Below are positions 432-43,421 of a stretch of DNA of 64,000 nt, in pieces. The position numbers were made by a program, and so were the translations under genes. The notes beneath the pieces are model-generated. The model saw nothing but the letters and a program-made list of their open reading frames with translations. It was not told where the DNA came from and did not search any database. The stretch's first letter is position 1. Every line of letters starts with the position of its first letter. This DNA is from an uncultured Candidatus Melainabacteria bacterium (GTDB lineage Bacteria > Cyanobacteriota > Vampirovibrionia > Gastranaerophilales > Gastranaerophilaceae): NCBI GenBank assembly GCA_945910425.1, contig CAMDYM010000001.1, positions 1,398-65,397 on the forward strand. The letters are read 5' to 3'.

Positions 432-1289
432 TTATTTATTATTGTTATTTCTTCGTTCTTTTTGCTGCTTAGAACCTCTGTTTGAATAAGACAAATCCGA
501 ATACGGTAAGTCTTGTTCGTCAAAGGTTGCTTTTAAGTTTGAAATATTGTTTCTTAAATATTGTTCTACAGCTTTATCTCCCGGGATAAAGTTTGCAGAA
601 ACTACGCCTTCTTTATTTATACGCAAAATAACTGATATATTTTGGTCAAAATCAATTCTTAGCGGTTGATTATTTTCTCTAGCCTTACTGATTGCATCAA
701 GTAAAGTTTGAGAAATCTGAACATTTTGTTTAACTTCAGCAAATTCTGCGCCGTTATTAAGCATAGTTTGTGCTTGAGTAGTAATATTTGCAACAGATAC
801 GTCATTATTTTTCGTAAGGTTTAAAAAGAAATTTGCATCAGATTCACTCAAGAATAAAGATTTAGTAAAATCTAAAGTCATAAACCCTTTGCTATTAAAC
901 AAATTATCAGTTTCTTCTACAGCAGCAGTGCCTAATCCCATAACTTGACGAATATCATTTGTTAACATTGAATTAGCATCTAAAACAGCCATAGAAGCAA
1001 ATTTGGAATAATCAGCACTGCCTTCAAGAACTAAATCTGTTTCTGAACCTTGGTCATTTTGAGATTTATCGTTATTTGATTTTACAGACTCTTTTTTCTC
1101 AGAAGTTTCTGAAACATTTTTCTCTGAGGAAGCTTGTTCTTTTGTGGAAACTTTATTCATTTCATCTTTAAATGAAGATTCTGATGATGATTTTTTAGCA
1201 TTATCAGTATTAACCTGCGTTGAGGCTTGAGATGTAGCTGATGATGAACTTACCTGTGTTGAACTTGTTGTTGCTGCATTAATACTCAT
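432..1289 (-). CDS. fliK: Flagellar hook-length control protein FliK-like
   Basis: 285 aa. The Ser/Thr/Gln-rich N-terminal half is low complexity. The C-terminal block LRIDFDQNISVILRINKEGVVSANFIPGDKAVEQYLRNNISNLKATFDEQ resembles the FliK C-terminal (Flg_hook) domain. It lies between fliJ and a hook gene, with a GAAGG RBS. Confidence 0.55.
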   Translation of the reverse strand: MSINAATTSSTQVSSSSATSQASTQVNTDNAKKSSSESSFKDEMNKVSTKEQASSEKNVSETSEKKESVKSNNDKSQNDQGSETDLVLEGSADYSKFASMAVLDANSMLTNDIRQVMGLGTAAVEETDNLFNSKGFMTLDFTKSLFLSESDANFFLNLTKNNDVSVANITTQAQTMLNNGAEFAEVKQNVQISQTLLDAISKARENNQPLRIDFDQNISVILRINKEGVVSANFIPGDKAVEQYLRNNISNLKATFDEQDLPYSDLSYSNRGSKQQKERRNNNNK

Positions 1290-1290
1290 T

Positions 1291-1767
1291 TTAATTACCT
1301 TCTGACTGACTTAATTGCTTTTCTTCCTCGTCTCTGCGTTCTTGGGCTTGCTTGAAAAATCTTGTTACACCCAACTCTGAGAATTGTTTTAACTCTGCGG
1401 CTTTTTCTTCTGCGATATAGGCTTCTTTACTTTTTTCTTTATGCTTCTCAAGAACTTTTACATTCTGTTCGCATTTTACAAGCTTTTGAATTTCTATATC
1501 AAGTAAGCGTTGTAATTCTTGGCGTCTTGCTTCTAATTCTTCCGCTTTCTGCCACAGATGCCGCAAGAAATTATCGTATGATTCGTATAACATAGGATCT
1601 GCCTGCCGCATTCCGTTTTTGGTGTCCAGAATATCTTGTTCATTTTTCTTGATATCCTGCTCTGCCTGGTTGACCGCAGCTTGAGCTTTTTGAACCTTCA
1701 TTCTCTGCTCTTCTTTTTGATTTATTCTAAAATCTAAAGCCTTCTGCAATCTGTACCGAAATGGCAT
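1291..1767 (-). CDS. fliJ: Flagellar export chaperone FliJ
   Basis: 158 aa, all-helical and charged. The N-terminus MPFRYRLQKALDFRINQKEEQ is typical of FliJ, and the size and context fit. GAAGGTG RBS. Confidence 0.6.
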   Translation of the reverse strand: MPFRYRLQKALDFRINQKEEQRMKVQKAQAAVNQAEQDIKKNEQDILDTKNGMRQADPMLYESYDNFLRHLWQKAEELEARRQELQRLLDIEIQKLVKCEQNVKVLEKHKEKSKEAYIAEEKAAELKQFSELGVTRFFKQAQERRDEEEKQLSQSEGN

Positions 1768-7648: not shown

Positions 7649-7814
7649 TTTATTATCCTCATAATTTAAACTATTTATATAATAAAAGAATAACACAAAA
7701 TAAAATTATCGGAATAATGCTTAATGTAACAAAAAATATCGTTTATTGAAAAGGTTTCAATAGTGTGATATAATAATAGAATAGAGAAGATTGTATGTCT
7801 ATGGAGTTTTGAAT

Positions 7815-9539
7815 ATGAGGATTTCAAATAAAAAACAGGCTTATTCATTAGCAGAAATAATGACGGTAATGCTTGTTTTAACAGTAATATTTGCGGCATT
7901 TGCACCGTTTATGACAAAAAGAAGAGTTGCAACAAGAAATGTTGATACCCCTTGGGTATTAACAGACCAACAATCTTATGATGCTCAAACTGATCCCGGA
8001 AATAATACTAACCGTAACCAAATGTTTTTTGGTATTACACCTAAATCAGGCGATGAAGTTGAATCTCAGTATCAACCGTTTGCAAAACTTGTAATTCGTT
8101 CAGGAGAAGTTACCGGTGGACTTGTTCAAAGACAATTACAATTCCGTTACGGACTTAATAATTCTAGTTCAAAATATACTGATAAAGGAAAATATGCCGG
8201 AACATGGTTAATGGATGGTAAAAATGTCCTTATGGGCGGCGGGTATAGAAATATAGTAACTAAAAATTCAGGTAGCACACAAGCAAGTAAGAACAATACT
8301 GCCATTGGTTACAACGCTTTAAATAAAATAACTTATGGCTCAGGTAATACTGCCTTGGGATATAATGCATTAGCTAATGTAACTTACGCTAAAGATAATG
8401 TTGCTATTGGAGCAAATACAGCGTCAAACTTATATACTTCACAAAATACATATATTGGAGCAAATGCAGGAAAATCACAAACCGGGTCTAAAAATGTTGC
8501 GGTAGGTTACAATGCGGCAGGAGCTAGTAGCGGTACAGGATCTAATAATACCTATGTCGGGGCTTTTTCTGGACAATCTTCTACACGCGCAAATCGTAAT
8601 GTAGCAGTTGGTGCTCATGCCCTTAAATCTATAACAACAGGGTATGACAATGTGGCTTTAGGTTATGGCGCATTACAAAAATTAACAACAGGCTATTATA
8701 ATGTCGCTATTGGCTATAATGCTTGTTCTAAAGTTACATCAGGCTCTTATAAAACTTGTATCGGTGCTAATTCAGGACCAAAATCCGGCACCAACGGGGT
8801 TGGTAACTTTATAAAAGGTTGGGAAGATAATGTTCAAAGAACATATATCGGCTCTAAACCTCATAACTTTGGCGGTGATGCTGTTCTGGAAATTCATAAC
8901 CCTGAGCCACCAAAAGACTTGAACAAGAATGGTATTGTTCAATATTTAGCCGGAACAGCATCAAATACAACAACCATTATCAATGGAAATTTAATTGTTA
9001 CTGGTAAAACTTATTTTACTTCCGGTCAAAATTTGTATCACCTTCATGAATTAAGTGGCACTAATTCAAAATATGTCTTTGGAGCTTCAGGCACTAATGA
9101 TGTCTGCTCTTATGATCCTAAAAGTTATGCATTTACAGGAAGTAACTGTAAAGTCTTTTCATCAGACAGAAGGCTCAAAAATATAGGAACAAAAAATGGG
9201 GCAGGGCTTGATAAATTATCACAATTAAAAATTTATAACTATACTTTTAAAAACGATAAAAACAAATTACCGCATGTCGGGGTAATGGCTCAAGATTTGC
9301 AAAAAGTATTTCCAAATTCTGTATTTAAAGGTGAAGATGGCTATCTTCGTATCCGTTGGGATGAGATGTTCTTTGCCACAATAAACGCGGTCAAAGAATT
9401 AGACAAAAAACTCATTGCACTTGTAAATAAAACATTCAAGGTTGAATCTCAAATCGCAAAACTTGAAAAAGAAAATGTTATTTTAAAATCTCAAGTAGAT
9501 TTATTAACAACAAGAATAAATAAATTAAAAGCTCAATAA
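7815..9539 (+). CDS. Prepilin-leader / tail-fibre-repeat protein with C-terminal S74 intramolecular chaperone domain (paralog A)
   Basis: MRISNKKQA|YSLAEIMTVMLVLTVIFAAFAPF is a class III signal-like N-terminus (E at +5). About 15 iterations of NTA(I/L)GYNAL..T.G repeats. Conserved neck AVLEIHN...NGNLIVTGKTYF. SSDRRLKNI...YNYTFKND..LPHVGVMAQDLQKVFPNSV...IRWDEMF matches the endosialidase/tail-spike chaperone domain (Ser-x4-Lys dyad, Ser codon 9162-9164), followed by a coiled coil. GGAG RBS 8 nt before ATG 7815. Confidence 0.75.
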   Translation: MRISNKKQAYSLAEIMTVMLVLTVIFAAFAPFMTKRRVATRNVDTPWVLTDQQSYDAQTDPGNNTNRNQMFFGITPKSGDEVESQYQPFAKLVIRSGEVTGGLVQRQLQFRYGLNNSSSKYTDKGKYAGTWLMDGKNVLMGGGYRNIVTKNSGSTQASKNNTAIGYNALNKITYGSGNTALGYNALANVTYAKDNVAIGANTASNLYTSQNTYIGANAGKSQTGSKNVAVGYNAAGASSGTGSNNTYVGAFSGQSSTRANRNVAVGAHALKSITTGYDNVALGYGALQKLTTGYYNVAIGYNACSKVTSGSYKTCIGANSGPKSGTNGVGNFIKGWEDNVQRTYIGSKPHNFGGDAVLEIHNPEPPKDLNKNGIVQYLAGTASNTTTIINGNLIVTGKTYFTSGQNLYHLHELSGTNSKYVFGASGTNDVCSYDPKSYAFTGSNCKVFSSDRRLKNIGTKNGAGLDKLSQLKIYNYTFKNDKNKLPHVGVMAQDLQKVFPNSVFKGEDGYLRIRWDEMFFATINAVKELDKKLIALVNKTFKVESQIAKLEKENVILKSQVDLLTTRINKLKAQ

Positions 9540-9563
9540 CATTTATTTGACAATATTAAAAAA

Positions 9564-9594
9564 GAGAATCTCTAAATTTAGAGGTTCTCTTTTA
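9564..9594 (+). terminator. Rho-independent terminator after paralog A
   Basis: GAGAATCTCT-AAATTT-AGAGGTTCTC followed by TTTT. Confidence 0.7.
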
Positions 9595-9726
9595 TTAACT
9601 TTTATTATTAATAACTTATAAAAAATTTGATTATTATAAGCGTTTGATTTACACTATTTAGCAAATGGAGTGCCGGGTTGGAATTAAAAGACTTACCGGC
9701 AAGGAAAATAAATTAAGGAGAAAGAA

Positions 9727-10998
9727 ATGACACCAAAGAAATTTTTATTTACTTCTGAATCAGTTACGGAAGGACACCCCGACAAAGTTTGCGACCAAAT
9801 TTCAGACGCAATTTTAGATGAATTTCTAACAAAAGACAGACAATCAAGAGTTGCTGCTGAAACCACAGTAACAACAGGTATGGCTTTAGTTTGCGGAGAA
9901 ATAACCGCTGATTGTTATGTAGATATTCCGCAGGTTGTTAGAAATACAATCAAAAATATCGGTTACATTGGTTCTAATGCAGGTGGTTTTGATGCTGATA
10001 CTTGCGCTGTATTAACAAGTATTGATGAACAATCAACAGATATCGGAAACGGGGTTAACAAAGCTTTTGAAACAAGAAGTGAAAACGCAGATACTTCAAG
10101 TGTTGAAACAGAAGAAATTGGAGCAGGCGATCAAGGTATAATGTTTGGTTATGCTTGCAACGAAACACCTGAACTTATGCCGTTACCAATAAGCCTTGCT
10201 CATAAATTGTCATACAGATTAGCTCAAGTAAGAAAACAAGGACTTGTTAATTATTTAAGACCTGACGGTAAATCTCAAGTAACTGTCGAATATGTTGACG
10301 GTAAACCTTCAAGAATCCACACTGTACTGCTTTCAACTCAACATAACCCGTCTATTAATGGTGAAACTGATAATCAAAAAGTTCAAGACATTATTAAAAA
10401 TGATTTAAAAAAACTTGTTATTGATTATGTTTTTGAAAATGAAGAAATCGGATTAGACGAAAATACAATCATTTTAATCAATCCTTCAGGAAGATTTGTA
10501 ATTGGCGGGCCTCAGGGTGATTCAGGATTAACAGGCAGAAAAATTATCGTAGATACCTACGGTGGATATTCAAGACACGGCGGTGGAGCATTCTCTGGAA
10601 AAGATCCGACAAAAGTTGACAGATCAGCAGCTTACGCTTCACGTTATGTAGCTAAAAACATCGTAGCATCAGGTTTAGCTGAAAAATGCGAAATAGAATT
10701 AGCTTATGCTATTGGTGTAGCTGAACCTTTATCAATTATGGTTGATACCTTTGGAACAGGTAAAATTTCAGATGATGAAATTTCAAAACTTGTTTACAAA
10801 AACTTCGACTTAAGACCTGCTGCAATTATTAACAAATTTGATTTAAGAAACTTACCTGCTAAAAACGGTGGTAAATTCTATCAATTATTAGCAGCTTACG
10901 GTCATATGGGACGTACTGATATAAATGTTCCTTGGGAACAAACAGACAAGGCTGAAACATTAAAAACTCAAGCTATGTCAATATCATCTTGCATATAA
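9727..10998 (+). CDS. metK: S-adenosylmethionine synthetase
   Basis: [55 protein letters not shown]. Strong AAGGAGAAAG RBS. Confidence 0.95.
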
Positions 10999-11026
10999 AT
11001 AAATCTATAAAATCAAATAATTAAAG

Positions 11027-11061
11027 AAAAGCCCTTTCAAATATATTTTGAAAGGGCTTTT
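11027..11061. terminator. Bidirectional terminator between metK and paralog B
   Basis: AAAAGCCCTTTCAA-ATATATT-TTGAAAGGGCTTTT, a perfect 10-bp stem flanked by A/T runs between convergent genes. Confidence 0.75.
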
Positions 11062-11086
11062 AATGGTTTTAATTAATTAAGTATTG

Positions 11087-13375
11087 TTACTTATTTTTTG
11101 TTTCAAGAATATTTAATTCTGTTTCTAATTTATCTAACTTTGCATTAAGTTCTTGGTTATCCTTTTTCAAGGCTGCAACACGAGATTTATCCGTTGAAAT
11201 CTTTGAAGCTAGTTTTTCTATTCGAACATTCAACTCTTTAACAGAATTAATAACAGCATAGAACATTTCATCCCAGCGAATTTGGTAATAACCGTTTTCA
11301 TCTTTAGATACAGCGTTAGGGAAAACCATCTTCAAATCTTGAGCCATTACACCTACTTGAGGTAACTTCCTTACATCATTTTTGAATGTAAAATTATAGA
11401 TGTTTAAGCGTTTTAATTCTGCTAATCCTGCCGTGAACTTATCACCTATATTTTTCAAACGAGCATCTGAAGTTAGATACCCTCTGGTATCTTTTTCATC
11501 TGCTGCATTTATTGTCAAATTTGGGCAACAAGAGGATTTTATTTCACCAAAACGACCGTCTGTAGCACCACCAATACCTTTTAAATGAGCAAGAGGTTGG
11601 TCAGTTCCCAAAGACCTATAATCTCCACGCTCAAAGATTCCATATTTTACATTATTACCATAAGCTCTATTTGGATTTTTCCATTCGGAATTTCGTTCCA
11701 AATAAACGGTACCTCCTACAGCTTGATCATTATAATATTGCCCCATCCTATGACGATTACCGCAAATAGTACCATTACCATCACCATCATCGCCATAAGT
11801 AATATCACCTTCTGTTTTTGTAATCCAGTCATAAGAAGTACTACCTTTACGAAGGGATTCTCCAACATTTGCATAATTTGTATTTCCTGTATATGAACCA
11901 ACCGTTGTACAAATACAATTAGTTCTTAAGTCTTTAAAATCATGCAACTGACAACGTCTTCTATTACATCTTGCAAAAGATTTTTCATTACGACGAGCCC
12001 CATCATATCCCATAAAAGAATAAGTACTGCTATTAACTTTTTGTACCTGATAAGCAACAAGTCCTTTTGGTAAATATTCAGGATGCATTTGATATTTACC
12101 GTTATCACTTGTTGCCGGTCTCCAAATAGGAGTTTCTAAATAAGATTGACCTCTTACAACTAAATTACCATTTATGACAACAGATTCATAGCCCAAACCT
12201 GAAATTGGCACCATTTTCTTAGAAGTATCAGAGGCAGATACATTATGGACTTCTAAAACAGCACCAGGCCCCTTACCTGTTGAAGCTCCGGTAGACCTAG
12301 GAATAGAGCCAATAAATACTCTTTCATGAGTACCATTATACAAACCTTCTAATGGTTTTATATTATTTTTAACAGTATCTGAATTTTGTATAGTTCCAGA
12401 AAAAGCTCCAACAAAGGTTTTATTAGAACCTGTTGTTAATAAATCGCCTGTATGAGAACCAATCGCAGTATTATAAGACCCCTTCGTTATATTTCTTAAA
12501 GATTTAGAACCTATTGCAGTATTATAATTACCTTCTGTATTATTTATTAATGCGGAATAACCGACAGCAGTATTTCCATAACCGCTTGTTAACTGATATT
12601 TATACGAATTATCTCCCTCATTATAAGACATTAATGAACCTAAAATAGTATTAGAATACCCGGTAGAGTCAACATGACCTGCATCAGTCATCCCTATTAT
12701 CGTATTATCATTGCCTTTATTTCCAGTTACATAGGCACCGGCAGCACGACCTGCAAAAGTGTTTCTGGAGCCTGTAGTATACCGACCGGCTCTGGAACCA
12801 ATCGCGGTATTATTACTACCTGTTGTTAATTCATTAAAAGTTAAATTACCGGCAGCAGTATTGTTAGAACCAGTTGTTAATGCTGATAAAGAACCTGAAC
12901 CGTAAGCAGTATTATTTACAGCTGAAGATTGAACATTTTTATATTCTCCACCAAGTAAAAAATTTCCGCGACCAGCCAATAACGAACCTAGATAAGTTCC
13001 TTCAGCAGGAGTATTACCGTAGCGAAACTGCATCTGAGTCTGAATACCTGATATTCCTTTCAGCTTTTCAGCCGAACGAATAACAAGCTTAGAGTAAAGA
13101 GGATTGCCGGAAGCATCTTGAATTGCCGCACTTACATCAAGAGCCTTTTTTACAGGAATACCAATAAAAGCTTGTGCTGTAAATGACTTATTAGACGCAT
13201 CATAATAAGCATCATTATGACTATCAGAAGGAACATAAGTCCAAACATCATCATATGAAACATTATGCTGTCTTTTGGTCATAACAGGAGCAAATGCGGC
13301 CATTAATACTGAAAGTGTTAACAGTAATATCATTACTTCTGCCATTGTAAATGCTTTATTTTTAATATATTTCAT
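11087..13375 (-). CDS. Prepilin-leader / tail-fibre-repeat protein with C-terminal S74 chaperone domain (paralog B, 762 aa)
   Basis: MKYIKNKA|FTMAEVMILLLTLSVLMAAFAPV. Repeats of the NNTA.G..A....TTGSNNTA type. Neck AVLEVHN...INGNLVVRGQSYL. About 220-aa Cys/Gly/Asp-rich distal region. TSDARLKNIGDKF...YNFTFKND..LPQVGVMAQDLKMVFPNAV...IRWDEMF plus a coiled coil (Ser codon 11468-11470). GGAG RBS. Starts 14 nt after paralog C. Confidence 0.75.
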   Translation of the reverse strand: MKYIKNKAFTMAEVMILLLTLSVLMAAFAPVMTKRQHNVSYDDVWTYVPSDSHNDAYYDASNKSFTAQAFIGIPVKKALDVSAAIQDASGNPLYSKLVIRSAEKLKGISGIQTQMQFRYGNTPAEGTYLGSLLAGRGNFLLGGEYKNVQSSAVNNTAYGSGSLSALTTGSNNTAAGNLTFNELTTGSNNTAIGSRAGRYTTGSRNTFAGRAAGAYVTGNKGNDNTIIGMTDAGHVDSTGYSNTILGSLMSYNEGDNSYKYQLTSGYGNTAVGYSALINNTEGNYNTAIGSKSLRNITKGSYNTAIGSHTGDLLTTGSNKTFVGAFSGTIQNSDTVKNNIKPLEGLYNGTHERVFIGSIPRSTGASTGKGPGAVLEVHNVSASDTSKKMVPISGLGYESVVINGNLVVRGQSYLETPIWRPATSDNGKYQMHPEYLPKGLVAYQVQKVNSSTYSFMGYDGARRNEKSFARCNRRRCQLHDFKDLRTNCICTTVGSYTGNTNYANVGESLRKGSTSYDWITKTEGDITYGDDGDGNGTICGNRHRMGQYYNDQAVGGTVYLERNSEWKNPNRAYGNNVKYGIFERGDYRSLGTDQPLAHLKGIGGATDGRFGEIKSSCCPNLTINAADEKDTRGYLTSDARLKNIGDKFTAGLAELKRLNIYNFTFKNDVRKLPQVGVMAQDLKMVFPNAVSKDENGYYQIRWDEMFYAVINSVKELNVRIEKLASKISTDKSRVAALKKDNQELNAKLDKLETELNILETKNK

Positions 13376-13389
13376 TTGCGTACTCCATA

Positions 13390-15387
13390 TTAGTTTTCAA
13401 GTTTATTAACTCTTTTATTCAGAGAATCTATTCTTCGTTGAACTGACCTTTGTTCTTTTTCAACTATTTTCGAATCTTTTTCTAATGAATCGACATCTTT
13501 ATTAAAATCAATTAATTTTTGATTTAACTTTTTAACTGAATTAATTGTTACGTAGAACAGTTCATCCCGTCTTATTTGTAAGTAACCTTCATCATCTGTA
13601 GACACAGAATTTGGCAGATATTTTTGCAAATCTTGTGCTATAACTCCGACTTGAGGAGTATTATCTTTATCAGATTTATATGTAAAATTATAAGGCATAA
13701 CCAGCATAATTTTTTCCAAAGCATCAGTATTTTCTGTTATATTTTCTTTTAATCGTATATCAGAAAGCTGCAAATCAGGGCAATTTCCCCCTGATTTAGG
13801 ATAATTATCCGTAACAGAATCCACACATGCAGGAGCAAATTTAGGATTTGTATCATCTCCGCCCATAGTAAAGTTCATCGCTGAAAATGATAATGGATCC
13901 GGAGCCCTATCATAGCCTTTACCACCAAACATTGATCCTACAAATCCCCCAACAGTACCACCCCAAAGGGCAGCATAAGCTATTGCAATAGCAGTTGTTG
14001 CTCCAAGAGTGATAAAACCACCAACAATTGCAGCAGCACCAATAATAACACCGACTATAATATTCCAAATACTACAACTTGATGAGTGCCAATGCCTTCT
14101 ATGAAATGGCTTTGTACAGCATTCATCTCTACCCTTTTCAGAGCCGCTTTTCTTATCTGTAATGATAGAAACCGTATGAGTACTCAATTTTCCACCATGG
14201 GTAATTGCTGCCGGGAAAAATACGTTACCTCTAACAACCAAATTAGAATTCATAACAACGGTAGGTCCTAAATTGGACGAAAAATTATGGACTTCAAGTA
14301 CTGATCGACCGCCGAAACCCTTTGGAGAACCACCCAAATATATATGATCACCATTATCAATATCAAAACCTGCAGTTCCTCCTGAACTAGGAGCTCCAGA
14401 CCTGACACCTTTATTTTTAGCAGATTCATAACCAATACAAGTATTAGTTGTCCCTTTACCATCATATGAAACCGACATACAGGAATCATAACCAACCGCA
14501 GTTAAATTAGACTGAGTTGTTGTTTTTCCTGTATAAACATCATAACCTATAATAGTATTATTTTGAGAATTTTCAGCATAATAATATGAACCAAGTATAA
14601 CATTGTCATTAGAAGCTGTGGTTAAACCTACAGAAGAAACGTTGGCACCTGCAAATACATTATTATTACCTCTTGATGTTGCACTATTTAAGACATTAGC
14701 TCCAAGGGCTACAGTATTATTTATAGCACCCATTGCTTCTGTTCTTCCGGTATTAGCACCTAAAAATGTATTATTAGAGCCTGATAAATATTCTCCTGAT
14801 TGAACACCAGCTGCAACGTTAGAATAGGCTACATGTGTCTTAGATTTATCTTTGGCTAAATCTGAAGCCATAGCTCGAGCACCAATTGCAACATTTAGTT
14901 TAGGAACAGTATAACTGTTAAAAGCACTCATCCCAGCGGCTGTATTTTCTTCACCCACCCCGGAATATGAAACCTTACCTACAGTTTTTAAATTGCCCTT
15001 ATCATCAAAGGTAAAAGAACCGACATAACGACCGTCGCCATCACCATATCTGAAATGAATCATATCCTGAGGGTATTCATTACCGCTATCATTGATTTTA
15101 ACAGCCTTTAAAACTACTTTTGAATAATGTTTTTCCTTATATACTTTTTCTATGCCTGCTTTTGTTAATCCTACAAACGCAGCAGAAGTCAAAGTCGGAA
15201 CTTCTGAATCATAATATGCGTCATGGGTATTACCGTCAGTAAATCGCCATACAGACTCAAGGTTTACCTCAGAACCGTTAAACCTCTTTGTTATTATCGG
15301 TGCTAACGCGGCAAATAAAACCGCCACAATTACTAAAACAATAAGTAATTCTGTCAACGAAAAAGCTTTAAATTTATTAAAATTCAT
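13390..15387 (-). CDS. Prepilin-leader / tail-fibre-repeat protein with internal glycine-zipper hydrophobic segment and C-terminal S74 chaperone domain (paralog C)
   Basis: MNFNKFKA|FSLTELLIVLVIVAVLFAALAPI. Repeat region and neck SVLEVHN...NSNLVVRGNVFF. Hydrophobic Gly-rich stretch WNIIVGVIIGAAAIVGGFITLGATTAIAIAYAALWGGTVGGFVGSMFGG. LSDIRLKENI...YNFTYKSD..TPQVGVIAQDLQKYLPNSV...IRRDELF plus a coiled coil (Ser codon 13762-13764). The start is ambiguous: ATG 15387 is preferred by GGAG spacing, with alternatives at 15393 (ATG) and 15396 (TTG). Confidence 0.7.
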   Translation of the reverse strand: MNFNKFKAFSLTELLIVLVIVAVLFAALAPIITKRFNGSEVNLESVWRFTDGNTHDAYYDSEVPTLTSAAFVGLTKAGIEKVYKEKHYSKVVLKAVKINDSGNEYPQDMIHFRYGDGDGRYVGSFTFDDKGNLKTVGKVSYSGVGEENTAAGMSAFNSYTVPKLNVAIGARAMASDLAKDKSKTHVAYSNVAAGVQSGEYLSGSNNTFLGANTGRTEAMGAINNTVALGANVLNSATSRGNNNVFAGANVSSVGLTTASNDNVILGSYYYAENSQNNTIIGYDVYTGKTTTQSNLTAVGYDSCMSVSYDGKGTTNTCIGYESAKNKGVRSGAPSSGGTAGFDIDNGDHIYLGGSPKGFGGRSVLEVHNFSSNLGPTVVMNSNLVVRGNVFFPAAITHGGKLSTHTVSIITDKKSGSEKGRDECCTKPFHRRHWHSSSCSIWNIIVGVIIGAAAIVGGFITLGATTAIAIAYAALWGGTVGGFVGSMFGGKGYDRAPDPLSFSAMNFTMGGDDTNPKFAPACVDSVTDNYPKSGGNCPDLQLSDIRLKENITENTDALEKIMLVMPYNFTYKSDKDNTPQVGVIAQDLQKYLPNSVSTDDEGYLQIRRDELFYVTINSVKKLNQKLIDFNKDVDSLEKDSKIVEKEQRSVQRRIDSLNKRVNKLEN

Positions 15388-15562
15388 CCTCATCAAACTC
15401 CAAGTACTCTATGTTAATAATATAATTTTAACATAATTTAGCCAATATTTCAATAATATTCACAAAATATACAAATTTAAATTTAAAATCAGACAATAAG
15501 TGTAATTTGAGCATACATAAAAATTTACATACTTAAGAAATTTGATATGATAAAATTTAATC

Positions 15563-16992: not shown

Positions 16993-17673
16993 ATGAAAAT
17001 AAACTTATCTGCGACTGATAATCCTAATCAAATATATAAAACCTTCGCTAACGAAGTAAAAAAACAAATTTCACAACACAAAACAATAAAACCAATAAGT
17101 TATTCATGCTCGTTGCACGATATAGGTGCTATATTTGAACAACGAAATCAAATACAGCCACTAAACAGATTATACTCAAACTTAGCAGAGTTTCTCGTAA
17201 GTTGTGGTGAAAGCAGTCTTGCAGGGATAACCTACAGCTTTTTGATAAAACTGAACAAAAATAATGCACAACTTATAGAAAAATTTGCAACAAAAGCTCT
17301 TGCAATAGCTAAAAGACAGCATGACCCAGTTCATATAATGGCAAGAGCCAACGACTTAAATAAAATATACAGAATAACAGAACCCGGCAGTGATAAACAT
17401 ATCAAGATATTATATGAAATTAAGCGAGCCTTAGCAGGGATTTGTAAAAATTACGAATCAACACAAAAAAGATATATGTCTGTATCTACAAAAATGAAAC
17501 CACGAAAGCAATATGAAATAATGCTTGCGAACATCAAAACAGAAATTGGCGAATTACTAAGATTCAAAGACCCGAAACTTGCGGAAGAGGAATTACTATC
17601 GGCAAGGGAAATATTTACAAAACTTGGCTACACGGATAAAATAAAACAAATAAACAAATTATTAGGAATTTAA
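16993..17673 (+). CDS. Hypothetical all-helical protein (TPR-like?)
   Basis: 226-aa ORF with normal composition for the window and no overlapping better ORF. No motif recognised. Confidence 0.4.
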   Translation: MKINLSATDNPNQIYKTFANEVKKQISQHKTIKPISYSCSLHDIGAIFEQRNQIQPLNRLYSNLAEFLVSCGESSLAGITYSFLIKLNKNNAQLIEKFATKALAIAKRQHDPVHIMARANDLNKIYRITEPGSDKHIKILYEIKRALAGICKNYESTQKRYMSVSTKMKPRKQYEIMLANIKTEIGELLRFKDPKLAEEELLSAREIFTKLGYTDKIKQINKLLGI

Positions 17674-28761: not shown

Positions 28762-31374
28762 TTAGAATGAACGTAATCTGCGTCTTACTGTCATTACACA
28801 CGATTCGTAATCGCATGGATTAATTGATTTATCAGTAGACGCTGTCGTACTGTCATTGCGTAAATAATCAGTACCTTTTAGCTCAACCTCATGTTCTACA
28901 TTACTTGAATCCTTATAAGCAGCTTTTTCATAGAACTTTTCACCTAGGTTTTTACAGTAAGGCGTATTTTTACTTATTTTACGCATTGTACAAATTGCAC
29001 GGGCATAAGAGACATTAGACATTACAACTTTTTTCTTTCTTGCATCACCTGTACTTTCCATATAATAAACATCAACAGGAAGCTGGTTTGGACTGTTACC
29101 ACCCAAGAAAAGATTTGAATGAGCTGTATCTTTATCTTTTACACCATCTAAAGGATAACCCGGATAAACTGTTCCGTTTGAAGCTATATAGAACGGGAAT
29201 ACATCTTCCCATAAAGTACCGTTACCTTTTGATCCATTTATATCAACAAACACTGTAAACCCGCTTATCGCATAGACCCTTACATCATTTTCATAATCAT
29301 CCTTTGAATATCCTCCACTACTTGCAGTCATTGCAGCAGCGATATCAGATAAATCAGGGGAAGCGCAACAATTTCTGGCATCACCCATTCCACCTGTAGT
29401 ACCATCTTTTATACTTGAAGAAGCTAAAGCAAAACAAGCATTTTCAGAAGCGCAGAAATAAGCATCACTTGACGCATTTTTACAATCTGCTTGTGTCTTT
29501 TTGTTTAAATTTTTACAAATATTTCGAGATTCGGTACTATTATCCGTAGAATAGGTCAACCCTGGAATAGAAGCTAATCTGTCACTCATAATCCACAAAT
29601 GTAACCCGTTAGCTAATATAATATTTGGTTTTAACCCTGTACCTGTTCTAGGATTAAATGCAAAAGCTCCGGGTTTTGAATCAATAGACATTAATCGTTT
29701 ACTTGTCTCGGTTGATCTGCCTAAAGCAGCTTCATAAACTTCTTTATAATACTTTGCACCGCTTAATCCGGGAACATCAGTATAAGCTATCTCACTACTA
29801 TAATCATGCTTAATATTCCAGTTTTCAGCAATCAATTCTGAAAAACGGCTTGCTCGAATAATTGGAGGATTAAGAATACAGATATTATGTTCTTCATCTA
29901 AAGAATACCCTGTCGGACAAGCTGTATGAACTGTACACCCGACAGATTGTGCCGCGCCATCAGGTCTTTTAAATCCCGGGATACAAGCACAACCATCACC
30001 GCTTGCCACAGAGTTTTCAGGACAGCAAGCTCCTAATGATTCACTAAAATCATTTGAACAAGCAACACATTTATAACCACTTGAAATTTTTACTGCATAA
30101 TTATATCTATTATTAGAAGAAATAGAACACGCTACCTTTGGATTATTTGCAGAAACTTCATACCCCGTTTTTGGAACACAATTTAAAGTTTCAAAAGTTC
30201 TATCTTCATTTTGCCATCCGGCATCAGTAGAATCCCCGGTATAAAATCCTTTTGCAGCCTTACAAAAAGTGTCGTTAAAAGTAGGTCTTTCAACTTTAAC
30301 CTCAGCAGAACCTGAACCATCACCAATTTTACGCTTTACAATTTGCTGCAGAATACATGTCCCTCTATTTGAAACAGAAGTATAATCTACGAAATTACTT
30401 GAATCAAAACCGGCACCTGAATCTTCCTTACCATCATCTTCACCGTCATCATCACCTGTGTCTTCATCATCGTGTTTAAATTCTATCGAATTTTCATACT
30501 TATCCATGGTAACAGAGTCAGTTGAATTTGCTTTAATATGTGGTTTAATACCATTATTACATAAATTAGCTCCACTATCAGGATTAGAATTTGTATACCC
30601 AATATAACTTACTAAACTTGAAACTGGAACTGTCAAAGAATCTTCCGAAGGTAACATTCCTTTAAAAACTTCATGTACGGCGATTGGTCCTTTAATTTCG
30701 TGAGTAATAATATTTCCATTATTATCTTTAGCCGGAGCGCCATTAACATCCTTTTCGGTAACTGTACCGCAGACTGCATTTTTAGCACAATCCTTAGTAT
30801 AACCGTAACAATTATTGAAATCACTTTTCTGATAGAAAGTTTGATGATATTTAATTATATTACCTGCTTCATCTTTTTCGGGTACACTTGTTTTTACAAC
30901 TGAACCACCATTACATACTTTGTATGGCAACCATAGTTGCTGTATAAAATCATCGGTTGTATAAAGTTGAGTATCTGTTTGAAAATCCACATAACCGTCT
31001 TCAGCAAACGCCTTAGGGAAAAGTTTTCGCATTAATGAGTTTTCAGAAAAAGCGATACGTTTTGTAATATCGTTAAAAAATCCTTTTACTCTTGCTGCCA
31101 AACTGTTTTTAACATGATGTTTTGCAATCCTATTAGGTGCAGGTCGGGCAGAAGTAGATTCACTTTCTTCATATTTTTCACCCATAATAACAATTTGAGA
31201 TGCCATTTTTTCTACAGACTTAAACGCCATATAATAAGCGTATTCATCAGATTTTTCAAGCTGACGATTAATTATAGGTAACGTTACAAACGCTAATATT
31301 GCAACAATAAATAAAGCAATAACGATTTCTGCCAACGTAAACGCAGATTTTTTAATATTATTTTTAAAACTCAT
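28762..31374 (-). CDS. Giant cysteine-rich pseudopilin-like protein (870 aa)
   Basis: MSFKNNIKKSA|FTLAEIVIALFIVAILAFVTLPII is a prepilin-type N-terminus. Acidic run HDDEDTGDDDGEDDGKED. Many Cys, including CVACSNDF..CCPENS..CACIPGF..CTVHTACPTGY..NICI. The C-terminal block FVDINGSKGNGTLWEDVFPFYIASNGTVYPGYP resembles the C-terminal part of the small pilin-like gene at 42622. GGAGG RBS. Confidence 0.7.
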   Translation of the reverse strand: MSFKNNIKKSAFTLAEIVIALFIVAILAFVTLPIINRQLEKSDEYAYYMAFKSVEKMASQIVIMGEKYEESESTSARPAPNRIAKHHVKNSLAARVKGFFNDITKRIAFSENSLMRKLFPKAFAEDGYVDFQTDTQLYTTDDFIQQLWLPYKVCNGGSVVKTSVPEKDEAGNIIKYHQTFYQKSDFNNCYGYTKDCAKNAVCGTVTEKDVNGAPAKDNNGNIITHEIKGPIAVHEVFKGMLPSEDSLTVPVSSLVSYIGYTNSNPDSGANLCNNGIKPHIKANSTDSVTMDKYENSIEFKHDDEDTGDDDGEDDGKEDSGAGFDSSNFVDYTSVSNRGTCILQQIVKRKIGDGSGSAEVKVERPTFNDTFCKAAKGFYTGDSTDAGWQNEDRTFETLNCVPKTGYEVSANNPKVACSISSNNRYNYAVKISSGYKCVACSNDFSESLGACCPENSVASGDGCACIPGFKRPDGAAQSVGCTVHTACPTGYSLDEEHNICILNPPIIRASRFSELIAENWNIKHDYSSEIAYTDVPGLSGAKYYKEVYEAALGRSTETSKRLMSIDSKPGAFAFNPRTGTGLKPNIILANGLHLWIMSDRLASIPGLTYSTDNSTESRNICKNLNKKTQADCKNASSDAYFCASENACFALASSSIKDGTTGGMGDARNCCASPDLSDIAAAMTASSGGYSKDDYENDVRVYAISGFTVFVDINGSKGNGTLWEDVFPFYIASNGTVYPGYPLDGVKDKDTAHSNLFLGGNSPNQLPVDVYYMESTGDARKKKVVMSNVSYARAICTMRKISKNTPYCKNLGEKFYEKAAYKDSSNVEHEVELKGTDYLRNDSTTASTDKSINPCDYESCVMTVRRRLRSF

Positions 31375-42621: not shown

Positions 42622-43421
42622 ATGAGAAATTTTGCTTTTTCGTTGGCAGAGGTGTTGATTACTCTTGGCATAATAGGAGTTGTCGCAACACTTACAATAC
42701 CGATATTAAGCGCAAAGCTGGAAGAAAAAAGAACTATCAACAAGCTTAATAATACCTATGCAATTCTTTCTCAGGCATACCGCAGAGGAATCTCAGAAGA
42801 AGGAAGCCCTGAAGGTTGGTGTACGATGGGCGTAAAAGGAGATTGGCGTGATTTTGATGATTGTTCTATAAAAATATATGAAATGTTTACCAAATACTTA
42901 AAAGTCGCAAACCATTGTAATAATGGATATGGTGGTAATGGCGAGGATAACTGTTTTGCCAAAACATATAAAAATCGTAAAGGAGTAGATATAGCAAGAG
43001 CGAATGGCATGCACAGAAGCTTTACACTAATGAACGGAGTATCTGTAATGATTAATGCGGCAGCAGGTGACGGATACCAAAAAAATGGTGCTCGACCAGT
43101 ACTAATATACTAAATCAGGGCAAATCTAATATAGCATATTGGGATTATATCGGAATTTGCGGTACCTTATGGGTTGATTTAAACGGGAAATCACTACCAA
43201 ATACTGACGGCAGAGATTTGTTCGCGTTTAAAATGTACAATGACGGTATTGCACCAATGGGAAGACTTGGAGCACACAGTCAACAAAACTTTGAAGGGAA
43301 TTGCCTTGGAACTGCATTCAAAAATCTTGGAAGTTGTACTTATTGGGTACTTGAGAACAAAAATATGGATTATTTGAGATGCAAAGACTTAAGTTGGAAT
43401 GGCAAACATTCATGTAAATAA
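42622..43421 (+). pseudogene. Pilin-like (prepilin-type N-terminus) gene split into two frames at an A7 tract: frameshifted, phase-variable or recoded
   Basis: MRNFA|FSLAEVLITLGIIGVVATLTIPIL. Frame 1 stops at 43111-43113. The -1 frame is open from 43071 and encodes ...NIAYWDYIGICGTLWVDLNGKSLPNTDGRDLFAFKMYNDGIAPMG, the conserved C-terminal pseudopilin block. The frames overlap across A7 at 43079-43085. Confidence 0.65.

Follow-up and report, generated by a model that had tools for sequence, protein, structure and literature searches.

We analysed a stretch of 64,000 nucleotides (hereafter the window) of contig CAMDYM010000001.1 from an uncultured Candidatus Melainabacteria bacterium (assembly GCA_945910425.1). 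It contains three paralogous genes, here named fibA, fibB and fibC, whose products begin with a class III (prepilin-type) signal, continue as a repetitive shaft of phage tail-fibre type and end in a Peptidase_S74 (S74) chaperone domain. On balance, and with modest confidence, we take these proteins to be vertically inherited, self-chaperoned trimeric surface fibres resembling phage tail fibres, in which the phage attachment end has been replaced by the class III signal and a domain of their own (the N-domain), and which are probably displayed as adhesins by type IV filament machinery. The GC content of the window was ~34% and uniform, and the DNA belongs to a Gastranaerophilales (Melainabacteria) chromosome.

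The three open reading frames (ORFs) were confirmed as initially annotated (Table 1), with 14 nt between fibC and fibB and with metK (9727-10998) lying between fibA and fibB; metK and fibB are convergent. The encoded proteins were 37-42% identical in pairwise comparisons and could be aligned end to end. Profile and motif tests bore out the shared architecture that had been proposed for them, i.e., a prepilin-type N-terminus, repeats of tail-fibre type and a C-terminal S74 chaperone.

Judged by profile scores, the S74 assignment is sound. In a hidden Markov model (HMM) scan Peptidase_S74 (PF13884) scored 55.5 bits in fibA (E-value 7e-15), 43.4 bits in fibB (4.3e-11) and 55.8 bits in fibC (5.8e-15), all far above the cut-off of 22 and in agreement with the initial annotation. 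The Ser-Lys dyad corresponded to Ser450/Lys455 in fibA (SDRRLK), Ser636/Lys641 in fibB (SDARLK) and Ser542/Lys547 in fibC (SDIRLK); the motif SDxxxK was present in 120 of 120 homologs and SDRRLK in 116 of them. A family profile compared with the PDB matched the S74 modules of a phage tail fibre (8jov), MyRF (7dc3, E 2e-4), a T4-type long tail fibre (6f45) and a phi29-type appendage (3gud), and PHROG tail-fibre families matched the same region. The coiled coil forms part of the ~125-residue fragment downstream of the catalytic serine; in an AlphaFold2 (AF2) model of fibA, residues 515-573 formed a helix in this C-terminal coiled-coil region. By analogy with characterised S74 proteins, autocleavage before Ser450 is predicted to set the chaperone fragment of fibA free.

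Upstream of the S74 domain lie the shaft, a neck and a variable tip. Autocorrelation of the shaft sequences, with peaks at offsets 17 and 34, gave a repeat period of 17 residues in about 10 copies, which corrects an earlier count of 10-15 copies of 14-15 residues. The fibA shaft matched tail-spike and virion-structural families of PHROG (E 1e-24). The neck motifs VLE(V/I)HN and N(G/S)NL(I/V)V(T/R)G were found in all three paralogs, as first described, and E359, H361, N362, N390, N392, L393 and G397 of the fibA neck are invariant. The tips of fibB and fibC presented no domain in searches against Pfam and the PDB. Among fibA orthologs, mean pairwise identity was 0.77 in the hydrophobic N-terminal helix (alpha1N), 0.73 in S74, 0.65 in the coiled coil, 0.59 in the neck, 0.53 in the repeats and 0.50 in the N-domain, and reached its lowest value, 0.32, in the tip. 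All cysteines are located within the last repeats and the tip, most of them in the tip, which fits an extracytoplasmic location; Cys304 and Cys315 were universal in the fibA orthologs and the Cys431/Cys445 pair was present in 69%. Conserved ends, a variable tip and distal cysteines together make up the pattern expected of an exported receptor-binding fibre.

A resemblance of the repeats to those of trimeric autotransporters had also been suggested. Identity with a YadA-like trimeric autotransporter was rejected, as none of the three proteins matched the Hep_Hag-type repeat PF05658 or YadA_anchor, even when the repeats were searched at E<=10. PF05658 was on record for 14/120 members of a sister subfamily (see below) among the matches listed, so that the repeats are YadA-head-like at best, and the YadA_anchor domain was found nowhere in the proteins examined.

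The N-termini of the three proteins showed a basic leader of 8-9 residues, Ala at position -1, Phe or Tyr at +1, Glu at +5, a stretch of about 20 hydrophobic residues and Pro at about +22; in each case the hydrophobic helix ended in A-P-x-x-T-K-R. Glu5 and Pro22 belong to the hallmarks of type IV pilins. The motif (A/G)(F/Y)(T/S)(L/I)(A/S)E occurred at residues 7-10 in 120/120 fibA homologs, with Gly (32) or Ala (88) and nothing else at -1, Phe or Tyr at +1 and an invariant Glu+5. When 100 diverse members were aligned, the only invariant residues of the N-module (signal plus N-domain) were Glu+5, Pro+22, Thr+25 and one Trp; the first three are E14, P31 and T34 of fibA. In profile searches fibC exceeded the cut-offs of both N_methyl (PF07963; 22.3 vs 21.2 bits) and TIGR02532 (18.7 vs 16.3 bits), and fibB matched a ComGC-type pilin N-terminus at E 6e-5, under the cut-off. 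The prepilin profile that had been anticipated was thus found in fibC and remained below cut-off in fibA and fibB (see below); the evidence from the family as a whole is much stronger than these single scores. Among the matches listed, N_methyl was on record for 16/120 fibA homologs and for 81/120 members of the sister 'GFTLAEMMVV' subfamily, there together with PF13884; the source database names members of this subfamily 'prepilin-type N-terminal cleavage/methylation domain-containing protein'.

Sequence and model together indicate that the N-terminus is a class III signal with an alpha1N assembly helix and not a canonical pilin domain. The helix is followed in each paralog by a family-specific N-domain of ~110-120 residues. 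Its conservation, proposed at the outset, was confirmed, except that the motif given as DAYYD reads DAQTD in fibA. No Pfam match to the fibA N-domain was obtained even at E<=10. An AF2 model of fibA residues 1-160 (predicted local distance difference test score, pLDDT, 72) contained a helix only at residues 12-39 and a beta-rich domain after it, and Foldseek searches of the PDB and viral libraries gave no match to this model at E<=1e-3. A homolog search with the fibB N-module (150 aa) returned 4 matches, the word prefilter being poor for short queries, and an exhaustive search of 1.84 billion (1.84e9) representative proteins with the N-module only was used instead. It yielded 145 clusters, nearly all of them S74 fibres. 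The signal motif was present in 103 of the 104 clusters of >=450 aa and the S74 motif in at least 95 of them, so the N-module and S74 nearly always occur together.

The same type of signal was observed on other proteins. Two more ORFs of the window carry it: 28762-31374 (-), which encodes 870 aa with KKSA/FTLAE (the slash marks the putative processing site) and has no other Pfam domain, and 42622-43113 (+), which encodes a pilin-sized protein of 163 aa starting with MRNFA/FSLAE. Small Cys-rich pilin-like genes (229-265 aa) were also located upstream of a fibre paralog in another public locus (L059; loci compared here are numbered with the prefix L). From these genes, the prepilin-type signal seems to be widely used in the clade. 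In a distant 'MMVVML' subfamily of fibres (L058 ~10001-10030, L060 ~10010-10042, L062, L068 and L074), (G/A)FTLAE was encoded in frame before the first canonical start, and no in-frame ATG, GTG or TTG was found upstream of it; L062 and L074 have an in-frame ATT or ATA. The database leader of a relative, P0255, was implausibly long (~35 residues). These sequences suggest non-canonical initiation or mis-called starts in the subfamily.

The family is large and its locus is conserved. A search with full-length fibA gave more than 6,600 homologs, the best of them 99% identical, and the search with the sister subfamily gave more than 4,700 matches; some relatives carry the NCBI name 'tail fiber domain-containing protein'. 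The gene order valS-fibA-metK-fibB-fibC-MFS-(hypothetical)-typA was found in at least 34 species-level Gastranaerophilales genomes, and both B-type and C-type genes were present in 34/34 scorable loci. At these syntenic loci the housekeeping genes were 81-98% identical, vs 42-78% for the fibA orthologs. A scaffold of 951 kb contained the same arrangement in its interior, surrounded by rpiB, rsfS, flagellar, S1 and dnaX genes, and other fibre paralogs occurred singly among housekeeping genes elsewhere in related genomes. The closest public locus (L001) comes from a mouse-gut metagenome-assembled genome (MAG) labelled 'uncultured Vampirovibrio sp.', with valS, metK and typA 96-98% identical to those of the window. 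All the named top matches were Gastranaerophilales or Melainabacteria, or evidently mislabelled MAGs, one of which was labelled 'Heliobacteriaceae bacterium' (P0331).

Contigs with unexpected labels, L002 (JAMPCZ010000013, labelled Muribaculaceae), L019 (CAVAPR010000001, labelled Methanomethylophilaceae archaeon) and that of P0331, carry the valS-fibA-metK-...-typA synteny, and their housekeeping genes were 89-97% identical to those of the window. To judge from these sequences, the contigs of L002, L019 and P0331 almost certainly come from mis-binned or mislabelled MAGs.

The fib genes are a conserved, core chromosomal family and not a prophage, in line with the initial annotation. A remnant of a prophage or tailocin, i.e., domesticated tail fibres still serving phage-like particles, would account for the clear homology of the shaft repeats and S74 to phage tail fibres and spikes and for the 'tail fiber' name of the relatives; we regard this explanation as effectively refuted. 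The flanking genes are valS, metK, an MFS transporter gene, typA, dnaX and flagellar genes, and no phage structural, integrase or lysis genes flanked the locus in the window or in the 951-kb scaffold; the synteny across at least 34 species and the uniform GC content also speak against a phage origin of the locus. The alignments with IMG/VR homologs began no earlier than residue 92-160 and showed <=31% identity, and no GenBank phage covered >=80% of fibA. What phage homologs and fibA have in common is only the repeats, the neck and S74: the N-module was absent from all phage homologs, which lack a counterpart of the N-terminal 90-160 residues, and a class III-like N-terminus was found in 0/65 phage S74 ORFs vs 140/149 in Gastranaerophilales loci.

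Signals for expression were inspected around the three genes. GGAG ribosome-binding sites were present 7-11 nt upstream of the ATG codons at 7815, 13375 and 15387, the spacing being 8 nt for fibA and 7 nt for fibB; an alternative start of fibC is possible at ATG 15393. Promoter-like sites were found upstream of fibA and of fibC (Table 1), as consensus matches whose number in the region did not exceed the shuffled expectation. Together with terminator-like hairpins, this arrangement suggests two putative transcription units, fibA alone and fibC-fibB, the latter ending at a terminator shared with metK.

The gene arrangement bears on the idea, put forward initially, that the three paralogs form a heterotrimer. 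An obligate heterotrimer of fibA, fibB and fibC, like the GspI-J-K pseudopilus tip, would fit the finding that the three paralogs always sit side by side at a single locus and the conservation of their S74, neck and N-domains. We consider it very unlikely because of the unequal lengths of the shafts (361, 374 and 352 residues in fibA, fibB and fibC, respectively) and of the tips (52, 226 and 154 residues), which probably could not stay in register in a three-fold beta-structure, and because fibA appears to be transcribed separately, from the opposite strand. Other paralogs occur singly in related genomes, and the S74 fibres characterised so far are homotrimers (PMC10769870).

The combination of a prepilin-type N-terminus with S74, which was at first not recognised from known systems, had already been catalogued in 2021. 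Raynaud et al. 2021 (PMC8179133) listed IPR012902-IPR030392 as the sixth commonest architecture of modular pilins, with 29 proteins (Dataset S1), and variants with one or two YadA-like head domains (IPR008640) in between, with 4 and 3 proteins, respectively; S74 was read there as 'peptidase activity' and no such protein was characterised. Most members of the present family escape that count because their N_methyl score lies under the cut-off. Public annotations likewise name relatives as prepilin-type or tail fiber proteins. In the literature searched we found no characterisation of prepilin-S74 proteins or of Gastranaerophilales surface structures beyond the 2021 catalogue.

The fib proteins share with modular pilins the string of domains, i.e., a class III signal, optional repeats of YadA-head type and S74. 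Under the definition of a modular pilin (N_methyl plus an extra domain), fibC qualifies by both Pfam cut-offs, and fibA and fibB by homology and motif only. They differ from the catalogued description in that S74 here evidently corresponds to the chaperone that makes phage-like fibres trimerise and then cleaves itself off. In PilB and PilC of Streptococcus sanguinis, which are characterised modular pilins, a monomeric adhesin module is combined with a true pilin fold, whereas the fib proteins showed no pilin head and their passenger is predicted to form an obligate trimer. CofB of the CFA/III pilus of enterotoxigenic Escherichia coli and TcpB of the TCP pilus of Vibrio cholerae, which are thought to cap and prime the type IV pilus (PMC8179133), are also class III signal proteins that trimerise via their C-terminal domains, but they contain a canonical pilin domain, are encoded in pilus operons and lack S74 and phage-type repeats.

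The closest characterised cellular analogue is the MAT fibre family of Bdellovibrio bacteriovorus (Caulton et al. 2024, PMC10769870), in which 13/21 members have S74; in the member Bd3182, autocleavage of S74 in a cellular fibre was abolished by the substitution S782A. MAT and fib proteins alike are chromosomal multi-paralog families with a trimeric repeat shaft, a swappable variable tip and a self-cleaving C-terminal S74 with SDxxxK, the trimer and the cleavage being predictions for the fib proteins, and in both the targeting signal is followed by a conserved beta-rich N-domain (~110-130 aa) without known structural homologue. MAT fibres occur in another phylum, have an ordinary signal peptide instead of the prepilin-type signal and are much longer (Bd3182, ~55 nm); the resemblance is architectural. 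Phage tail fibres and tailspikes (K1F endosialidase, T5 pb1 and the phi29/GA-1 appendage) share S74, the Ser-Lys dyad, the C-terminal helical bundle and repeats of NTAIG type with the fib proteins, which lack a virion-attachment N-terminus and a phage gene context and whose N-terminal 90-160 residues have no phage counterpart. In the membrane-tethered myelin regulatory factor (MyRF) the S74/ICA domain likewise makes a membrane-anchored protein trimerise and cleave itself, but MyRF is a eukaryotic transcription factor with its anchor C-terminal to S74 and its N-terminal part is the one released.

The tip of fibC contains a hydrophobic, Gly/Ala-rich hairpin (Table 1). Its sequence resembles two membrane-type helices joined by a turn in the middle, the second helix being a GxxxGxxxGxxxG zipper. 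It is flanked upstream by a Cys-rich basic segment and downstream by GKGYDRxxDP. Besides fibC, the module was found in 9/34 C-type orthologs (L001, L002, L003, L004, L006, L007, L009, L043 and L049) and was absent from the rest; in these orthologs the flanks (basic/Cys and GKDY-R-DP) are conserved and the hydrophobicity is kept, and the hairpin sequence itself is divergent. The fibC hairpin matched PF05433 'Glycine zipper 2TM' below threshold (E 0.007), and the other weak matches were membrane proteins. Going by its sequence, it could serve either as another anchor in the membrane or as a tip that inserts in one.

The favoured explanation would proceed as follows. The basic leader and the alpha1N helix would insert the protein in the cytoplasmic membrane with the N-terminus inside and the C-terminus outside, and the prepilin peptidase (PilD) would cut after the Ala or Gly at -1 and methylate the Phe or Tyr at +1. 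In the periplasm, by analogy with phage fibres and Bd3182, S74 and the coiled coil would nucleate a homotrimer and zip up the neck and the shaft of 17-residue repeats, after which the Ser-Lys dyad (SDxRLK) would remove the ~125-residue chaperone and expose the Cys-stabilised variable tip. The mature trimer would be held by three alpha1N helices bearing the Glu5 and Pro22 that serve in the assembly of pili. It would then be picked up and displayed by type IV filament machinery, most plausibly in a priming or tip complex like that of CofB and TcpB; this is the weakest step of the scheme. The divergent tips would give each paralog a separate ligand, e.g., host glycans or mucus, or other microbes.

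Several observations weigh against this explanation, above all against its last steps. The N_methyl scores were below threshold in fibA (12.8 bits) and fibB (10.6 bits). The model of the N-module gave no pilin fold in Foldseek against the PDB (best E-value 1.6), although the moderate confidence of the model means that a pilin head is not firmly excluded. Structure modelling was of monomers only, and the full-length model of fibA was mediocre (pLDDT 67); Foldseek found no PDB match to this model below E=5, which is uninformative because the model is a single chain of an extended trimer. A simple adhesin model does not account for the hairpin in the fibC tip. Neither the 64-kb window nor the surroundings of the three sister paralogs examined contained genes for pilus or secretion machinery, and no secretin is documented in the literature searched. 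In a rumen genome (L040, 6960-10806) the fibB-fibC pair after metK was replaced by uvrB, a membrane protein gene and a gene for a PilT-type retraction ATPase (9736-10806, -), 4.4 kb from the fibA ortholog. The locus can therefore be rearranged, and a genome that carries fibre genes also has type IV pilus machinery, but this single PilT neighbour may be a coincidence, and together with the pilin-like genes of L059 it is insufficient to claim linkage with pilus genes. Like this PilT gene, the reported presence of pilA, pilB, pilC, pilT and pilD in the genome of a Gastranaerophilus (PMC5877343) counts indirectly in favour of the explanation. The location at a pilus or pseudopilus tip, offered as one option in the initial annotation, thus stays conjectural, with no pilin head fold and with none of the loci examined tied to pilus machinery.

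These observations leave some room for fibres anchored in the envelope with no pilus at all, in which the class III segment would be a signal-anchor or export tag and the trimer would be tethered by its N-terminal helices or shed. We consider this a lesser but real possibility. It agrees with the lack of a pilin head fold after the helix and of linkage to pilus genes in the loci examined, with the occurrence of the same signal on unrelated proteins of 163-870 aa, as for a generic targeting signal, and with a possible role of the fibC-type hairpin as a second membrane anchor. Mere anchoring would not account for the strict Gly/Ala at -1, Glu+5 and Pro+22, which are the residues of cleavage and filament assembly; moreover, a shaft of about ten 17-residue repeats would probably be too short to cross a diderm envelope from the inner membrane and expose the tip, and the hypervariability of the tip suggests an external ligand.

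The ligands could also be microbes such as prey, epibiont hosts or competitors, instead of surfaces of the animal host, with the hairpin tips inserting in the target membrane, in MAT-like fibres for recognition or antagonism. This reading, compatible with either mode of display, seems to us rather unlikely. Phage-type receptor-binding modules usually target microbial surface glycans, and the glycine-zipper hairpin in the tip of fibC and of 9/34 C-type orthologs would suit such a role, but the hairpin is lineage-restricted and its Pfam glycine-zipper match was only sub-threshold. Gastranaerophilales are predicted fermenters and, to our knowledge, no predatory lifestyle has been described for them; no toxin or immunity genes were found adjacent to the fib genes in the window or in the 951-kb scaffold. 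On the other side are the parallels with MAT (PMC10769870), whose chromosomal paralogs are likewise numerous and have an N-domain conserved behind the signal, a tip that varies and an S74 domain, and the fact that the predator Vampirovibrio belongs to the same class (PMC4451040).

A bolder form of the favoured explanation, which we consider less likely than not, is a type IV filament capped by a phage-like self-chaperoned trimer. The pilus would possibly be retractable and its specificity swappable, with three or more alternative caps encoded at the core locus and, in some lineages, three glycine-zipper hairpins on the cap that could insert in a target membrane.

Table 1 Positions of the fib genes and of their predicted domains and signals in the window.
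Feature	Position	Strand	Description
fibA	7815-9539	+	574 aa; shortest of the three paralogs; apparently monocistronic
fibA promoter-like site	7746-7774	+	TTGAAA-17-TG-TATAAT; 11/12 consensus matches
fibA class III signal	7815-7922	+	Leader MRISNKKQA (residues 1-9), then YSLAE; Y10(+1)...E14(+5)...P31(+22)...TKR36
fibA N-domain	7923-8285	+	Residues 37-157; family-specific; predicted beta-rich
fibA shaft	8286-8801	+	Residues 158-329; ten 17-residue repeats G-x-x-N-T-A-I-G-x-x-A-x-x-x-x-T-T
fibA neck	8883-9005	+	Residues 357-397; VLEIHN to NGNLIVTG
fibA variable tip	9006-9161	+	Residues 398-449; 52 residues; Cys431/Cys445 pair
fibA S74 fragment including coiled coil	9162-9536	+	Ser450 to end, 125 aa; PF13884 over residues 450-503
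Terminator-like hairpin 3' of fibA	9560-9593	+	15-bp stem, then T-run
Bidirectional terminator-like hairpin, metK/fibB	11027-11061	both	15-bp stem
fibB	11087-13375	-	762 aa; second gene of the putative fibC-fibB unit
fibB S74 and coiled-coil fragment	11090-11470	-	Ser636 to end, 127 aa; PF13884
fibB variable tip	11471-12148	-	Residues 410-635; 226 residues; 7 Cys
fibB shaft	12371-12922	-	Residues 152-335; ten repeats; autocorrelation peak at offset 17
fibB class III signal	13271-13375	-	Residues 1-35; leader MKYIKNKA, then FTMAE...P...TKR
fibC	13390-15387	-	665 aa; leads the putative fibC-fibB unit
fibC S74 and coiled-coil fragment	13393-13764	-	Ser542 to end, 124 aa; PF13884
fibC variable tip	13765-14226	-	Residues 388-541; 154 residues; 5 Cys
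Hydrophobic Gly/Ala-rich hairpin in fibC tip	13930-14082	-	Residues 436-486; ~50 residues; read from sequence
fibC shaft	14395-14955	-	Residues 145-331; ~10-11 repeats, more degenerate
fibC class III signal	15283-15387	-	Residues 1-35; leader MNFNKFKA, then FSLTE...P...TKR
fibC-fibB promoter-like site	15425-15453	-	TTGAAA-17-TG-TAAAAT; consensus match only

Two further observations concern the neighbourhood of the locus. Between the MFS transporter gene and typA lies an ORF of 226 aa without Pfam match (16993-17673, +), the position of which is kept in many related genomes at just 42-86% identity. FliK-like and FliJ-like ORFs with weak Pfam matches were located at 432-1767 (-), and L155 has a flagellar rod gene close by, which is consistent with a flagellated organism.

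Gastranaerophilales are non-photosynthetic relatives of cyanobacteria and widespread uncultured members of the human, mouse and ruminant gut communities. With a core three-gene locus throughout the order, dispersed paralogs and thousands of public sequences, the fibre family is among their most conserved and expanded sets of surface proteins. It joins two well-studied systems that are usually dealt with apart, the receptor-binding fibres of phages with their self-cleaving chaperone and the targeting of type IV pilins. By analogy, the family can be described as a cross between modular pilins and MAT-like trimeric fibres that end in S74; a tip-adhesin mechanism is plausible for it. If the fibres ride on type IV filaments, the concept of the 'modular pilin' would extend to obligate trimers, and the peptidase role read into the N_methyl-S74 architecture in 2021 would be corrected. 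A trimer capping the pilus would, if real, represent a new way to arm pili and a clear instance of phage tail fibres and pilins exchanging parts. The variable tips may be what determines the targets of attachment of these bacteria.

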